Assembly (NCBI RefSeq): GCF_056712565.1
Contig: NZ_CM160072.1
DNA: 64,000 nt
Reading direction: 5' to 3' (one strand)
In this document: positions 15,501 through 21,500 of the stretch, piece after piece
Numbering within the stretch: the stretch's first letter is position 1
Layout: every line of letters starts with the position of its first letter
Position numbers: made by a program

Positions 15501-18500
15501 CGCTGGGGGTGATTGGCGTGATTTATGAAGCGCGCCCGAACGTGACGGTTGATGTTGCTTCCCTGTGCCTGAAAACCGGTAACGCGGTGATCCTGCGCGG
15601 CGGCAAAGAAACCTGTCGCACTAACGCTGCAACGGTAGCGGTGATTCAGGACGCCCTGAAATCCTGCGGCTTACCGGCGGGTGCCGTGCAGGCAATTGAT
15701 AATCCTGACCGTGCGCTGGTCAGTGAAATGCTGCGTATGGATAAATACATCGACATGCTGATCCCGCGCGGTGGGGCTGGTTTGCATAAACTGTGCCGCG
15801 AGCAGTCGACAATCCCGGTGATCACAGGCGGTATAGGCGTATGCCATATTTACGTTGATGAAAGTGCAGAGATCGCTGAAGCCCTGAAAGTAATTGTCAA
15901 CGCGAAAACTCAGCGACCGAGCACATGTAATACGGTAGAAACGTTGCTGGTAAATAAAAACATCGCAGATAGCTTCCTGCCCGCATTAAGCAAACAAATG
16001 GCGGAAAGCGGCGTGACGTTACACGCTGATGCAGCCGCGCTGGCGCAGTTGCAGGCAGGCCCCGCGAAGGTGGTGGCTGTTAAAGCCGAAGAGTATGACG
16101 ATGAGTTTCTGTCATTAGATTTGAACGTCAAAATCGTTAGCGATCTGGATGACGCCATTGCCCATATTCGTGAACACGGCACGCAACACTCCGATGCGAT
16201 CCTGACCCGCGATATGCGCAACGCCCAGCGTTTTGTTAACGAAGTGGATTCCTCCGCTGTTTACGTTAACGCCTCTACGCGTTTTACCGACGGCGGCCAG
16301 TTTGGTCTGGGGGCGGAAGTTGCGGTAAGCACACAAAAACTCCACGCGCGCGGCCCAATGGGGCTGGAAGCTCTGACCACTTACAAGTGGATCGGCATTG
16401 GTGATTACACCATTCGTGCGTAAATAAAACCGGGTGATGCAAAAGTAGCCATTTGATTCACAAGGCCATTGACGCATCGCCCGGTTAGTTTTAACCTTGT
16501 CCACCGTGATTCACGTTCGTGAACATGTCCTTTCAGGGCCGATATAGCTCAGTTGGTAGAGCAGCGCATTCGTAATGCGAAGGTCGTAGGTTCGACTCCT
16601 ATTATCGGCACCATCAAGAAAATCAATAACTTAGCTTAACTTCTCTAAGAAATTGTATCTTCTGTTATCACTTACAAACGCCTATACGTTGTTATGGGCT
16701 TTGGTAGTTTAACACGTATGGGCGAGTAGTTCCCAGGCTCAACCTCGTAACAAGTTCCTTTGAAGCTGGAAGACGTGCCACCGTCTCTAAACCTTCTACC
16801 AAAACTCTTAGCAAGATGTTCCACACCTGGCGCGGTGTCCAATGATGCTACACGTCGTGAGACGTTGCAGAGGATAAACAGGCTAAATGATGGGAAGAGT
16901 TTTAAGTGCAATAGTGGATTAAAGCCCACCTCTTCAAAACCTAACTTGATCGGGAAAGAATCAAGCTCTAGCACGGTTTCGTCCACCGGAGTACAACGGG
17001 TGCCTGATAAGAGAAGAACTGCTAAGACTTCATAGCTTTTGTGAAAAAGCCCTTTTTAGTGGATACGCCTACGGCGCTTATTTTTTGGTATAACCATCAA
17101 AGGCGCTTTATGGCTCCTATTGTCTTGAAAATGTATCTTTACTTGTATTGTGTTTTATGCGTAGTCTCCCTGTGTAGTATGTAACTTGTTAATTTTCATA
17201 TGAATACAGAGGCAACACGATGAAAAACATTGCAGCTATAAAACGTAATAACCGCAAGATTCACGCTCGTAAGTTCCTGTCTACGCCAGAGGGAAAAGCC
17301 TGGCTAGAGCGAAAGCAACGAGAGAACGAAGAAAGAAAACTCCTTAGTGAGTTGAAATGGCTTAGAGAGGATTTCTGAAAATCTCCAGAACGCAACAAGA
17401 CGCATTCTAACGCTGTTTTCATTGCTTGGTATAGGGATGTATATGTGATGTGTGTTTAATGCGTCTGTGAGCTTGTTTTGTGCCTTATTTTGCATTTTCA
17501 TAATGCAGAAGAGAACACGGAAAACCTTAAAATTAATTATTGGGGTATTTAAGGCTATTTTAAGGGGATTTAAGGGTATTAAACTTGATTTAATTGATTA
17601 AAATATAAACAGATAGCTCTGCATCTTATTGATTTATAAGGTTATTTTTGAATAAAGGTAAATAAAAAATAAATAGCCATAAATAGCTATAAATAGCTAT
17701 AAATACATCTAAATACATATGAATCCCCTCCCTTATGGCTAGATTGCGAGAGGTGCTTAACGCGATTTTTAGCGCCCCCCGATCTGGAAAATCCAGAATC
17801 CCCAAATATCAAGGAGGCATTACGCCTCCTCTTCTTCCTTCTTAATTCGCTGTACCGTTGAAGGAGCAACATTAAAGCTCTCGGCGGTTTTACGCACTGA
17901 CACGCCAGCGGAAAGGGCTTTCTTTATACCTTCCCTATCTACTGCCTTCCCTTTACCACGCTTTGTAGGATTGACGGCTTGCGCTTCTCGTTTACGCTCT
18001 AACATCAGTTCACGTTCACACGTTGCAACTGCCGACAACATCGTAAGCATCATCTTTCCCATCGCGCTTGTAATGTCAGCAATGATTCCTTCTTTGTGAA
18101 ATCGAACAATTACACCTCGATTATTAAGTTGTTCCACTAAGGCAAGAATGTCTAAGGTGTTACGCCCTAAACGATCAAGAGAGTGGACGTGTAAGGTGTC
18201 GCCTTCTCTCAGATAGGATAAACACGCCTGCAATCCTGGACGGTTAGTGTCTTTACCTGACAGCTTATCTTCAAAGACTTTATCAAGCGTTACTCCTGCA
18301 AGCTGGCGATCAGTGTTCTGATCTACAGTGCTCACACGCTTATAACCGATATTGCTCATAAAATCCTCTTAATGTATCGATTTGGCACTACTTCAATGCA
18401 AATGAGTATATCGTATTCATTTGGTCTGTTTCAAGCCTTATAGGTACGGAATATTACACGATTTAGATGTATTCATTTGGTATGCCTAATGGATACACAG

Positions 18501-21500
18501 GGGAATAGATTAAATGGTGTTCTGTTTATACAGGTTTATTTGTAGATCAACAATTTGGCATTTCTAAACAGATGTTTGAACGTTGCCAAATGTCTTGACA
18601 ACACAAGAAAAGGGCTTGCTATGCCACGCATTACACGAAATAAGGCTATAAAAACAAAATAAATTTTAAAATTTGCACAAACGAGAGAACTCATTCGACA
18701 AATAATAGATTAATTTTTAGCCAACAATTTCTGATGGTGCTCTGTAAGCCGCATTACACAAGGATTTGCGAAAGTGATGTAAAAGTGAAGAAAGTAAGAA
18801 TTGAACTTTTAAGCTACTTTTTCATTGAATTTTTAGTATGGAATTACACAGGAATAAGTTAGGGATATTCTATGATTTACACAGGGAATATAGGGGGATT
18901 ATGGCACACACATAGAAAGACATTACACAGAGTGCTATGTGACAAATGGATGTAACGAGAGGTTACATTCAGCTATCTGAAATGCTCTCTGTAAGAAAGT
19001 TGGTAGTAACGATATGTTACATAGACTAATTATTGAATGTAACGATATTACACATCGGAAGATGATTGAATGTAACGGTAGCTCACAGTGAACTAGGGGT
19101 AGGTCATAGTGAACTACCCCCACAGAATTCTGTTACCCCTATCAAGTCTGATACCCCTACCCCTATCAAAACTAATACCCGATAAGAATAAATAACACCT
19201 AGGAAATGATTTCCGATCTATTTAGGAAGTAACCTAGGAAGTGGTTTCCTACCTACTTAGGAAATGAGTTCCTACCTACCTAGGAAATGAGTTCCACCAA
19301 TACTATAATTAAATACTATAATTAAATAATATAAATAATATTCTTTATACTATATAGGTCATAGTGAGCTAGGGGGTAGGTCACTGTGAGCTACCCCCAC
19401 AGAATTCTGTTAATCTTAACTTTTAAAGAGATTTTTACCCTAACAAAATTCTGTTACCCCACCCTAACAGAATTCTGTTAGACACCCCCACAGAAAACTG
19501 TTAGACACCCCCACAGAATTCTGTTACCTATTAGATCATTTATTAAATTACTTATTAAATTATAATATTATATATTTATTTATATGATCTTTTGCCTTCC
19601 GGCGTTAGCTTCACTCTCTGGCAAGCAGCCTTACTCCGCTACCTTTGGGCTTCGTGGCTGGCCCGTTCCGCTCACACCGAAAGCAAAGCGTTACTTTCTT
19701 CGTGTAACTATCGTTGGCGGTAACGCCCACGAAGAAATACTATTGCGCTGTGCGCAGAAGAGTAATCACCTAACCAATCATACTGATTGCTTATGTGTTA
19801 ACTCTATCTCTCTACCTCGTAATTACCCTCCTACACTTAATAACTCTCGTTATTCTCTGTAGTTGTGTAATTACTCGAAGAGAGAGCGGCTAAAGCTCAA
19901 TTACACTCTGCTTTCCTCGTGTAATTTCACTAAGCCTCAATACAATTCCACTTCCTACATTCTGTAGTCGTGTAATTGTTTTCGGTGGAAAAGCCAGAGG
20001 CGACACCGAAAGAGAATTCTGATCTTATTAATCTTATCTATCTTAGTTATCTTACTTACTTATCTTACTTACTTTATCTACTTTATTATTAATAATAGCT
20101 TTATAAGCTCTCTGTAGCTCTCTGACGCAAGAAACAGCATTCAGGAAGGGAATCACCTTAGAAAAGTGTTCTTTGCGTCATAATGTGTTTTATGAAGGAT
20201 TCAGAGGTGTTTCATAACAGGAGTGTATAGAGGATACTTTAATTAATTAAAAATAAGGGGTCTAAATGCTTCTCTAACAGCATTAAGCAGGGTAGGGAAT
20301 GGAAACGCATTGTCTACATATATAAACTCACTACAGGGCTTTACAGAGCGTTTTATAAAGTGACTCTCTATCTTATATCTACCATCACCTTTTCATATAC
20401 CTAACAAATACAAAATAAGCCCCTTAAATAAGCCTCTGGCGAGCTAAACAGCCATTAGATAAGGCAATGTATTGCTTTTATCAAAATCTCGTTAGAACGC
20501 GTTTTAGAGCGTTTTAGCGGATAATGAAGAATAGCACTACACAGAAGAGCACGAATTGCTAAGAAAAAATGTAAGTGCATGAAAAAGATCAGATTTTTTA
20601 TGAAAAGGTATTGACAAATGTTTCTTTATATGTAATAATAGGTATTAGAGGGACAGAAAACATTCTTCTCTAAATAATCAAAATCAATGCACTTTGAAGC
20701 CGTCAGGCTTGCAAGGTGTTTTATTTCTTTTAACTGAATAAGGAGTTTTTTATGAAATGGTTTACACCGGAACACGTCGTCCAGGCATTTAAAAAAGGTG
20801 AGCTTACACGCCACCAAGTAGTAATGAACCGTAATATGGCAAGGAGTCGAGGTTATCCAGAGCGTGAAAAATGTTTTGACGATGCACTGAAAATTATTGA
20901 TGAACTGCGTAAGAAAGAAGCAGAGAAAGAATAATAGACAAGAGGAGGAGAAAACTATGAGCGAAACTAAGAAACCAATTCCGCGCACTTACCTACACGT
21001 TGACCCTGAAATCTTCAAGGTTTTATTTGCTGAAGCCAAGAAAAGGCAAATTATGGTCAGTGATTTGATGTTAGAAATCATTACTGAAGCAGCAGAGAAC
21101 ATCAAACAAAAAAAGGGTAAGTGATCCTCATTCACTTTAGTAGCGCATTAAGCGTGATTTATAAGGAGATTTTTAATGATTAATGAAGAACAATTTGTAA
21201 AAGTTCCTATGTGGATTCTAAAAATAAGCCAAGTAAACGGGCATAAATTTACAGATAGTGCTAAAAACCTTTACTGCTATCTGAAAGGGTTTGATCGTGC
21301 ATTTCCCTCTTACGCTAAGATAGGCGATGTTTTTGGCATAACACCAAGAGCAGCAGAGGAAAGGGTTAAGAAATTGCTCGAAATGGGGTTAATTATAAAA
21401 GATGCACGACCAGGAAGTTCTAATGTCTATCAAGTGGTAGATATTCCACAAGAAGAAGCTAGACAAGAAGCCAAAACACAACAAGAAGCTACCGTTAAAG

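Follow-up and report, generated by a model that had tools for sequence, protein, structure and literature searches.

Small serine recombinases whose res lies beside the gene, such as Sin, the beta recombinase and ParA/mrs of RK2, keep replicons monomeric. Invertases use two simple inverted-repeat sites and a Fis-bound enhancer, and a pair of neighbouring accessory sites, II and III, marks resolvases and not invertases. The gamma-delta half-site reads TGTCYNNTA. The res of Tn3 is 114 bp long and consists of three dimer sites with a 22-bp linker between I and II, and the regulatory interface of Tn3 resolvase comprises the four residues R2, R32, K54 and E56; the res of Sin has two dimer sites and an HU/IHF site, the half-sites of site II being in direct repeat (PMC9943657). 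SGI1 is an integrative, non-self-transmissible island with a tyrosine integrase, whose Tn3-like resolvase (Res, S027) has been shown to remove multimers, and its res, with promoter boxes within, measures 28 + 22 + 30 + 2 + 25 bp, that is 107 bp (PMC12217951).

The window, as we call the whole stretch of 64 kb analysed here, is E. coli chromosome, and an island of about 12.75 kb sits in its tRNA-Thr gene thrW. The island is edged by a 20-bp direct repeat, ACTCCTATTATCGGCACCAT, and its relevant features are these:

16595..16614, plus strand, left att repeat, at the 3' end of tRNA-Thr(CGT) thrW (16538-16613)
29340..29359, plus strand, right att repeat, second copy of the 20-bp direct repeat
27919..29253, minus strand, tyrosine integrase, 425 aa from the annotated start
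21176..21829, plus strand, lambda-O-like replication initiator
19436..19585, unstranded, likely origin, in which four 23-bp dyad iterons (ACAGAATTCTGT core) precede an AT-rich stretch
17754..18496, minus strand, putative res-resolvase cassette, the stretch common to alleles in unrelated contexts
17820..18359, minus strand, serine recombinase ORF of 179 aa, with an N-terminal catalytic domain and a C-terminal helix-turn-helix

The original prediction that two recombinases share a 12.7-kb element is borne out by the tyrosine integrase, the att repeats at the island ends and the serine recombinase gene. The initiator matches phrog_270 (7.6e-11) and several 'replication initiation O-like' families; its N-terminal part (21187-21534) varies between elements, the other hypervariable part being 19020-19529. 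Since the island, which is phage-satellite-like, encodes a lambda-O-like initiator, it is expected to replicate as a circle once excised.

The serine recombinase carries a Pfam Resolvase domain (E=1.8e-33) and a C-terminal HTH_7/HTH_38, and matches phrog_125 (6e-55). PGAP labels it 'recombinase family protein' in the identical record of E. coli GPEC548, and so are labelled all the E. coli copies of the cassette among the rows listed. The gamma-delta and Tn3 resolvases align to it end to end (E about 1e-28, roughly 38% identical), Gin aligns at E about 1e-26 and Sin at E about 1e-17; relative to gamma-delta, 5 residues are deleted after position 20. Catalytic inactivity, which had been named as an objection, does not apply, as in the alignment to gamma-delta and Tn3 resolvase the catalytic residues are all intact, with R8, S10, D31, R40, D62, R63 and R66 kept. 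None of the 9 recombinase copies translated has an internal stop, and dN/dS against 9 alleles, each intact, ranges from 0.013 to 0.22; purifying selection on the recombinase is strong. At the Tn3 regulatory interface three of the four residues are changed (R2->S2, K54->Y49 and E56->R51), the fourth change, R32->K27, being conservative.

Directly upstream of the gene, six 12-bp half-sites form three inverted pairs with the consensus TATYCATTTGGY, read from outer to inner, and these compose a candidate res in which the following elements are predicted:

18375-18495, minus strand, predicted res as a whole, about 121 bp
18470..18495, minus strand, predicted site I (crossover), a 26-bp imperfect dyad, the sub-site most distant from the gene
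18414..18446, minus strand, predicted site II (accessory), 33 bp, made of II-R, a 9-bp spacer and II-L
18375..18408, minus strand, predicted site III (accessory and operator), 34 bp
18405..18434, minus strand, sigma-70-type promoter of the recombinase gene, TTGAAA-18 nt-TATACT, 10/12 in a consensus scan

From site I towards the gene the layout is therefore 26 bp, a 23-bp linker, 33 bp, a 5-bp gap and 34 bp. In gene orientation site I reads TATCCATTAGGC-AT-ACCAAATGAATA, with the AT centre at 18482-18483; the two arms agree with each other in 9 of their 12 positions. In seven alleles no conserved block of the cassette lies further out, and the site is unchanged in 10 E. coli copies. Its length is 26 bp as counted and 28-30 bp with symmetric flanking bases. 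Site II consists of II-R, TATTCATTTGGT, at 18414-18425 and of a weak II-L at 18435-18446, and the spacer between them contains the -35 hexamer (18429-18434); in site III, III-R (18375-18386) and III-L (18397-18408) are separated by 10 bp, and III-L overlaps the -10 hexamer (18405-18410), so that both promoter boxes lie inside sites II and III. Exact copies of TATTCATTTGGT occur twice in the window, at 18414 and 18470; the paired motifs originally proposed as res-like sub-sites are thus the right arms of sites II and I.

In seven alleles that are 66-100% identical and lie in unrelated contexts, including 4.35-kb circularly permuted contigs, the six half-site positions are the same with zero shift, as are the positions of GGCTTG and TATACT. 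The half-sites also co-vary within each allele, reading ATCGCTACA in L023, ATCGCCACA in L024, TTTTGAACA in L026 and CTATTGAATA in L029. A matrix trained on the six non-window alleles was used to scan about 128,000 positions in the window, and five half-sites of the window came among the nine best: the arms of site I ranked 1 and 2, II-R ranked 3, and the site III half-sites 7 and 9. II-L is weak in the window allele (5.1 bits, rank 164), and at the same position L026, L029, L111 and L113 match their own consensus at 10-12 of 12 positions. The scan found no second half-site cluster in the 64-kb window. Because the choice of matrix positions was guided by motifs of the window itself, and because the alleles share a common origin, this signal partly reflects shared ancestry, and a shuffle test of internal repetition served as an independent control. 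Within the 140 bp that lie upstream of the gene, 49 pairs of 12-mers agree in at least 9 of their 12 positions, where Markov shuffles give 14 +/- 9. For the window, 2 of 400 shuffles equalled the observed repetition; in five other alleles the corresponding count was 0-6 of 400.

The recombinase resembles the TnpR of Tn3 and gamma-delta in size, domain order and all catalytic residues, and the predicted res resembles theirs in adjoining the upstream side of the gene, with site I as the distal sub-site, in its three inverted-repeat dimer sites, in the central AT of site I and in the promoter inside res. The linker between I and II is 23 bp here and 22 bp in Tn3, the whole res about 121 bp as compared with 114 bp, and the gap between II and III 5 bp in both. 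However, tnpA is not annotated here, the half-site TATYCATTTGGY is unlike that of gamma-delta, and site III is 34 bp against 25 bp in Tn3, so that the Tn3 synapse geometry is not simply transferable. In layout, SGI1 is also close, with a tyrosine integrase and a serine resolvase in one island and a three-box res beside the gene, and it is the best functional precedent for one island with two recombinases, although SGI1 is a 43-kb, IncC-mobilised element and the island here is phage-satellite-like, and the resolvase module is backbone in SGI1 but optional cargo here. As with plasmid multimer resolvases, many of the closest relatives are on small molecules: the closest homologues (50-69% identical) are in many cases on contigs of a few kb, and tblastn found relatives at 52-57% on complete 2-6 kb plasmids. 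The three inverted-repeat sites set the locus apart from Sin.

We consider it likely, on the anatomy of the sites and of the protein, that 17754-18496 is a self-contained cassette of the Tn3/gamma-delta type for multimer or cointegrate resolution, made of a resolvase and its own res. On this reading the module is an autoregulated res-resolvase system of a known kind, which most likely splits multimers of the small satellite-like island into single copies. We infer DNA binding, strand exchange, direct-repeat selectivity and the biological role of the resolvase as follows. Dimers would bind the three sub-sites, I as crossover and II and III as accessory sites, the substrate being two res in direct repeat on one supercoiled circle, whether a cointegrate or the excised and replicating island in dimeric or higher multimeric form. 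The accessory sites would intertwine and bring the two copies of site I together; Ser10 would then cleave at the central dinucleotide, and rotation of the half-sites would split the multimer into monomers. As the promoter lies within sites II and III, the same binding would repress the recombinase gene. The labour would thus be divided between the tyrosine integrase, responsible for integration and excision, and the serine enzyme, which would keep the replicating circle monomeric. A resolvase could, however, be counter-productive if the island is packaged from concatemers. Of the two roles first suggested for a second recombinase, multimer resolution fits the anatomy of the sites, while the inversion switch meets a single site cluster and no inverted forms in the E. 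coli genomes examined.

The cassette was delimited by homology with L023 and L024; in several contexts it extends beyond the gene by no more than about 140 bp on the upstream side and about 70 bp on the downstream side, the downstream part including a hairpin at the stop codon (17812-17830). The left homology break lies at 17753/17754 in L003 and L007 and at 17796/17797 in L008, and in the recombinase-less islands L004, L115 and L116 the breaks are at 17811 and 18487-18490. The stretch 17812-18496 was found in 156 of 5426 E. coli genomes, in 155 of them over at least 80% of its length. About a quarter of the island family has the cassette, and since about three quarters of the related islands are without it, it is unnecessary for the life cycle of the island; it is optional cargo of the thrW-integrated island.

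A rival reading is that the cassette is itself mobile, the recombinase inserting and excising a 0.74-kb unit of gene plus site, or fusing small plasmids with the island, via site I. Mobility through site I would explain the presence of the cassette in unrelated contexts, and its limits are sharp, the upstream one being the outer arm of site I; in the recombinase-less islands homology breaks 4-7 bp from the site I centre, and related alleles are found both on 2-6 kb plasmids and in islands. However, all the recombinase-less islands examined have the same two breaks and the same 385-bp filler, so that the absence of the cassette goes back to a single event, without recurrence. By eye, a site-I-like sequence in decayed form still spans the centre in the filler, as fits divergence better than a clean crossover. 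Moreover, the 62% allele of L021 was exchanged with wider limits (about 17373 to 18656), as fits homologous recombination in the flanks, and in the one copy checked an integrated 2-kb plasmid lies between two direct IS26 copies, hence an IS26 cointegrate. We regard mobility of this kind as unlikely.

It is somewhat harder to maintain that the protein works mainly by binding DNA as a regulator, repressing its own gene and perhaps acting at other places in the island too, with recombination irrelevant or lost. The overlap of the predicted binding sites with the gene's own promoter, the unconserved regulatory-interface residues and the dispensability of the cassette would agree with this, but the full set of catalytic residues under strong purifying selection would not, nor would the distal 26-bp AT-centred dyad, at least 60 bp upstream of the promoter and without obvious regulatory reason; the matrix scan found no further high-scoring sites in the island. 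Very improbable, in our opinion, is a tnpR and res remnant of a Tn3-family transposon after loss of tnpA: the res layout and the gene order, with site I distal and III proximal, are those of the Tn3 family, but no transposase is annotated in the island, the cassette limits are tight in several contexts, and many of the close relatives are carried by small plasmids or lie on small contigs, not on large transposon-bearing replicons.

The least credible reading is an invertase of the Hin/Gin/Pin kind, for which a pair of inverted crossover sites would bound a segment that flips as a phase-variation switch. The recombinase shares with Hin, Gin, Cin and Pin the protein family, the size and a 26-bp crossover-type dyad with a 2-bp centre, its relatives are labelled 'DNA invertase' by PHROG and JGI, and a 16-bp inverted repeat (17699-17714 and 18461-18476), matching at 15 of 16 positions, brackets the gene; when the flanks were Markov-shuffled, such a repeat arose in only 0.8% of cases. 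However, the left arm lies in a tandem-repeat module that persists in relatives lacking the gene and is replaced in relatives having it, and this arm is not among the matches of at least 4 bits in a half-site scan of 17380-18800; with a single half-site cluster in 64 kb there is no partner site for inversion, and the one site with its adjacent accessory sites II and III points to a resolvase. The inversion variants that the original prediction allowed for were not seen in E. coli genomes: a chimeric junction query found the inverted junction in 0 of 477 matching genomes, and in BLAST comparisons 12 of 12 related loci were colinear with the window.

Every repeat and motif previously listed around the gene is present, some at slightly corrected coordinates, and two groups of them lie outside the resolution cassette:

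17543..17718, unstranded, tandem 10-bp repeat arrays (Tandem Repeats Finder), a separate variable module outside the recombinase system
18553..18591, unstranded, ATTTGGCA ... TGCCAAAT dyad

Neither can be kept as recombinase sub-sites, as had been proposed. The tandem ATAAATAGCT/CTAAATACAT and TTAAGG repeats persist without the recombinase in L004, L115 and L116, are replaced in L003, L007 and L008, which have it, and none reaches 4 bits with the half-site matrix. The CAATTTGGCA/TGCCAAATG dyad, outside the cassette, also scores below 4 bits, has no counterpart upstream of those alleles (62-84%) that sit in other contexts, and is retained in recombinase-less islands such as L004. Two copies of ATTTGGCA (18380, 18553) and the complementary TGCCAAAT (18584) are present, and 10 E. 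coli copies conserve the ATTTGGCA ... TGCCAAAT dyad. As for the arrays, Tandem Repeats Finder reports GGGTATTTAA at 17543-17580 (period 10, 3.7 copies), ATAAATAGCT at 17669-17705 (3.7 copies, 96% matches) and TAAATACATC at 17700-17718 (1.9 copies); exact TTAAGG lies at 17549, 17560 and 17570, exact ATAAATAGC at 17669, 17679 and 17689, and TAAATACAT at 17700 and 17710. The copy number of these arrays drifts between elements. Their concentration here exceeds chance, for the window arrays scoring at least 50 are all in 17543-20083, except one REP-like array at 1512-1829.

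The window is E. coli chromosome, and its stretch from 16400 to 29360 is 100% identical to strain GPEC548. The gene order in the window is proB, proA, the tRNA-Thr(CGT) gene thrW (16538-16613) and then a 12.75-kb island. Two recombinases had been proposed for an element of about 12.7 kb, and the island indeed carries a tyrosine integrase and a serine recombinase. From left to right it contains a 52-aa ORF, the serine recombinase, a repeat-dense stretch of about 2.4 kb in which no gene is annotated, small ORFs, the initiator, the capsid homologue, a 609-aa protein, a Dit-like protein and the integrase:

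16595-16614 and 29340-29359, 20-bp repeat ACTCCTATTATCGGCACCAT bounding the island
17220-17378, strongly basic, conserved 52-aa ORF (WP_000788777.1) adjoining attL
17820-18359, minus strand, serine recombinase ORF, 179 aa
21176-21829, lambda-O-like initiator
23929-24957, distant homologue of HK97-type capsid proteins
609-aa protein with a PHROG match labelled tape-measure protein
237-aa Dit-like tail protein
tyrosine integrase, at the right end of the island in the gene list

No family match was found for the 52-aa ORF, of which a variant (WP_000788776.1) occurs even in a plasmid-borne relative. NCBIfam returned no family match for any island protein except the integrase, and a structured RNA was rejected because an Rfam search of the island finds tRNA only. 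Since capsid- and tail-type genes are present but neither a portal nor a terminase is annotated, its gene content gives the island the look of a phage satellite, from a family not yet described; our literature searches returned no description of this island family. Its relatives are located at thrW, at a tRNA-Leu gene, at a tRNA-Gly gene and on an IncF plasmid (the related loci L002, L115 and L021 are among them). The conserved core of the island is present in 670 of 5426 complete E. coli genomes (about 12%), whereas the cassette formed by the recombinase gene and the sites upstream of it (17754-18496) is optional, being found in 156.

The recombinase, with 179 aa against the roughly 180-200 aa usual for small serine recombinases, contains the Pfam Resolvase catalytic domain PF00239 (residues 4-128, E=1.8e-33) and a C-terminal helix-turn-helix (residues 141-174; HTH_38 8.9e-5, HTH_7 7e-4). 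Its alignment with the gamma-delta and Tn3 resolvases (1gdt and 2gm4, E ~1e-28) spans the whole protein, and the matches to Gin (1e-26) and Sin are slightly weaker. Residues R8, S10, D31, R40, D62, R63 and R66 correspond to R8, S10, D36, R45, D67, R68 and R71 of gamma-delta; in catalytic domain, Ser/Arg/Asp residues, helix-turn-helix and length the predicted protein agrees with small serine recombinases throughout. All nine E. coli-type alleles are intact and differ from the window copy mainly by synonymous changes (dS 0.07-0.28, dN/dS 0.013-0.22). Because the catalytic residues are matched and the nine alleles are intact, the enzyme gives no sign of the catalytic inactivation that the original prediction had itself named as an objection, and its integrity at the sequence level can be considered established.

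At the positions aligned with the regulatory (2-3') interface of Tn3 (R2, R32, K54, E56) the recombinase has S2, K27, Y49 and R51, so that it departs here from the Tn3 subgroup; three of the four residues (R2, K54, E56) are changed, and R32 to K27 is conservative. However, the study of Tn3 res also employs a related resolvase with another interface specificity (PMC9943657), and the mismatch therefore counts against a place in the Tn3 subgroup but not against a resolvase mechanism. No NCBIfam equivalog was found for the recombinase or any other protein of the island. A role as a defence-system component was rejected, since PADLOC matched neither the recombinase nor the three neighbouring small ORFs.

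Recombinase alleles with 66-84% protein identity from unrelated contexts (loci L023, L024, L026, L029, L111 and L113) resemble the window over no more than the gene itself and its flanks, about 140 bp on the upstream side and about 70 bp on the downstream side. Within the upstream stretch, six 12-bp half-sites occupy the same positions in 7 of 7 alleles, the number to which this footprinting was limited because a scan of genome contigs gave few close alleles. Taken as inverted pairs, they form a predicted res of three dimer sites adjoining the resolvase gene, which is the Tn3-type arrangement:

18470-18495, site I, 26 bp (12 + AT + 12), arms identical at 9 of 12 positions
18447-18469, linker between sites I and II, 23 bp
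18414-18446, site II, 33 bp with a 9-bp spacer
18409-18413, gap between sites II and III, 5 bp
18375-18408, site III, 34 bp with a 10-bp spacer
18434-18405, minus strand, conserved sigma-70-type promoter TTGAAA-18-TATACT, within sites II and III

The half-site consensus in the window, running from outer to inner end, is TATYCATTTGGY. Each allele has its own half-site variant, which shifts together across all the half-sites of that allele, as would be expected for sites read by one co-evolving protein. The paired TATTCATTTGGT motifs, previously put forward as res sub-sites, occur in exactly two copies in the 64-kb window (18414 and 18470) and coincide with the right arms of predicted sites I and II. 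A 25-bp dyad, CAAATGAATAC..GTATTCATTTG (18397-18421), was considered as a single dimer site, but it was re-read as the abutting right arm of site II (II-R) and left arm of site III (III-L) because L029, L111 and L113 revealed the polarity of the half-sites.

To rank these sites we used a weight matrix made from 36 half-sites of the six non-window alleles, scanned on both strands of the whole window. In this test, which is partly circular because the alleles are homologous, half-sites I-L, I-R, II-R, III-L and III-R rank 1, 2, 3, 7 and 9, and II-L is weak in the window allele (rank 164); a second half-site cluster is absent from the 64 kb. Independently of the matrix, similar 12-mer pairs were counted in the 140 bp upstream alone: there are 49, against 14 +/- 9 in shuffles, and 2 of 400 shuffles reach this value. 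The excess is similar in L023, L026, L029, L111 and L113, and also in the upstream region of L022, which is unaligned. The anatomy of the site and its conservation are established as features of the sequence.

The elements listed in the original prediction, namely the recombinase, the downstream tandem repeats and the upstream motifs, are all present; not all of them belong to the recombinase. Tandem Repeats Finder identified 10-bp arrays at 17543-17580, 17669-17705 and 17700-17718, and every array scoring at least 50 in the window falls within 17543-20083, except a REP-like one at 1512-1829. The latter, a 100-bp unit repeated 3.2 times with 92% matches, resembles a REP/BIME-type intergenic repeat cluster. 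Comparison of relatives revealed that islands related to this one are a mosaic of modules. In L004, L115 and L116, 385 bp of unrelated DNA take the place of the recombinase module (~17812-18490), and the tandem-repeat module (17382-17753) is retained; in the recombinase-bearing L003, L007 and L008 it is the tandem-repeat module that is swapped for other DNA. Moreover, the count of ATAAATAGC units differs among elements and the middle TTAAGG unit is not conserved. The downstream repeats thus exist but form a unit separate from the recombinase and, considering also their matrix scores, they were rejected as its sites. The ATTTGGCA-N23-TGCCAAAT dyad (18553-18591; the motifs stand at 18380, 18553 and 18584) lies beyond the unit travelling with the gene; the 62-84% alleles in other contexts lack it in their upstream regions, and recombinase-less islands and 10 E. 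coli copies retain it. Hence only part of the proposed interpretation survives: the res-like sub-sites at TATTCATTTGGT stand, and the tandem repeats, the ATTTGGCA/TGCCAAAT dyad and the inversion switch, discussed below, do not.

Cargo differs among islands at the position between the 52-aa ORF and the origin, which acts like a hotspot. L021 has a 62.6%-identical recombinase allele there, and L116 and L117 (3453-4004) have an unrelated 183-aa protein on the opposite strand. This protein, with a hydrophobic N-terminal segment resembling a signal peptide, was considered as an inverted recombinase and rejected, being unrelated and probably bearing a signal peptide.

The res of Tn3 comprises three dimer sites in ~114 bp, with a promoter inside and a 22-bp I-II linker (PMC9943657). 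The predicted site resembles that of Tn3 and gamma-delta in its three dimer sites, in the gene-distal position of site I, in the promoter within res, in a linker of ~22 bp, in sites II and III that nearly abut and in a total of ~114-120 bp; its spacing, with about two helical turns between sites I and II, is of Tn3 type. The sub-site lengths differ (26, 33 and 34 bp here, 28, 34 and 25 bp in the Tn3 type), and site III, unlike that of Tn3, is as long as site II and has a 10-bp rather than a short spacer. The integrative island SGI1 encodes a tyrosine integrase and also a Tn3-like Res/res; its res (28 + 22 + 30 + 2 + 25 bp) has promoter boxes inside, and its resolution system was demonstrated to eliminate island multimers (PMC12217951). 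Our linker of 23 bp compares with 22 bp in both Tn3 and SGI1, and the II-III gap of 5 bp with 2 bp in SGI1. By analogy, SGI1 is the closest functional precedent for a tyrosine integrase and a resolvase in one island.

We consider it likely that the cassette is an autoregulated res-resolvase module recombining directly repeated copies of res. The excised island, with its own initiator and iteron origin, would form multimers or cointegrates containing such direct repeats, on which the recombinase would act to resolve them, and the promoter within sites II and III would place the gene under its own control. Binding, catalysis, directionality and a benefit to the island are what we infer from enzyme and site. 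It is conceivable, if rather doubtful, that a cassette derived from small plasmids lets this satellite-like island with its capsid gene survive or multiply in the form of monomeric circles, either as a plasmid-like episome or as unit-length genomes for a small capsid, and that it also spreads between plasmid and island through site I. If this were true, possession of the cassette would separate islands of different lifestyles.

Small plasmids, or contigs only a few kb long, carry many of the proteins most closely related to the recombinase, which fits a role in multimer resolution and a plasmid origin of the cassette. Circular plasmids of ~2 kb from E. coli and Salmonella (L020, NZ_CP116175.1, 1985 bp; NZ_AP027492.1; NZ_CP130129.1) have a 56-57%-identical recombinase as their sole annotated gene, with several AGTAACC-related repeats and without a recognisable rep gene. 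In pYUSHP31-1 (L114) such a ~2-kb plasmid is integrated in full, with an IS26 copy on each side, the two in direct orientation. Three 4.35-kb contigs (L026, L027 and L028), mutual circular permutations, encode a 69% allele whose res is laid out in the same way, as well as four or five genes for which Pfam gave no significant match; they are probably a small plasmid or phage-like replicon.

Other roles for the cassette appear improbable to different degrees. That it is self-mobile is suggested by the break points of recombinase-less islands, 4-7 bp from the centre of site I, but these all trace to one event, and resolvase-mediated integration of a related 2-kb plasmid was rejected because the integrated copy that was checked is an IS26 cointegrate; we regard self-mobility as improbable. 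Slightly less credit is given to the recombinase being a pure regulator. A transposon relic is less plausible again: in Tn3-family transposons tnpR-res is accompanied by the transposase gene tnpA and enclosed by 38-bp terminal inverted repeats, but no transposase is annotated in the island, and the cassette limits lie at most 140 bp and at most 70 bp from the gene.

A DNA invertase of the Hin/Gin/Pin type, the basis of the inversion switch offered in the original prediction, is the least credible role. An inverted repeat does bracket the gene (17699-17714 / 18461-18476, 16 bp, 15/16 matching) and is unlikely by chance, being reached in 0.8% of shuffles. Its right arm reaches across part of the I-II linker into the outer end of site I. 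However, this is the only inverted repeat flanking the gene, and it is uncoupled from it, as its left arm belongs to the independent tandem-repeat module. A chimeric query for the inverted junction (at least 80% coverage) matched 0 of 477 matching E. coli genomes, and in BLAST comparisons 12 of 12 related loci proved colinear with the window, so that a second orientation was not found among these; inversion at this repeat was rejected on the 477 genomes and the independence of the module. Hin, Gin and Pin act at two inverted crossover sites on either side of an invertible segment, with a Fis-dependent recombinational enhancer, whereas here there is a single half-site cluster in 64 kb with no partner site, and an invertase role is therefore unsupported.

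The mechanism of the res-resolvase module is not new, as this kind of system is already known. Nevertheless, an annotation as "recombinase family protein" in 156 complete E. coli genomes becomes a specific, testable model of site and enzyme with base-pair coordinates. It would be the second case, after SGI1, of an integrative island in which a tyrosine integrase is combined with resolution machinery of the Tn3 kind, hosted here by a small phage-satellite-like element. The orthogonal small serine recombinase/res pair, with its naturally co-varying specificity variants, could also serve as a genetic tool.

To the right of the cassette, the stretch 18900-19590 is a dense block of at least four dyad-symmetric repeat families:

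GTAACGnnnnGTTAC, three copies
TCACAGTGA/GGGGTAGGTCA, four copies
AGGAAATGAnTTCC, four copies with a 23-bp period
ACAGAATTCTGT, seven copies, of which four form a 23-bp tandem array with AT-rich sequence after it

The block looks like a lambda-type origin, judging from these repeats. The variety of its sites, however, exceeds what a single initiator should require. Two parts are hypervariable between related islands, 19020-19529 and the N-terminal part of the initiator (21187-21534). The ~2.3 kb of 18497-20750 have no annotated gene in this compact 12.75-kb island and may contain a non-coding RNA, although Rfam has no hit there, or a packaging site; an unannotated ORF of 92 codons lies at 19584-19862, and several hundred E. 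coli genomes nevertheless share 19529-21187 at 90-95% conservation.
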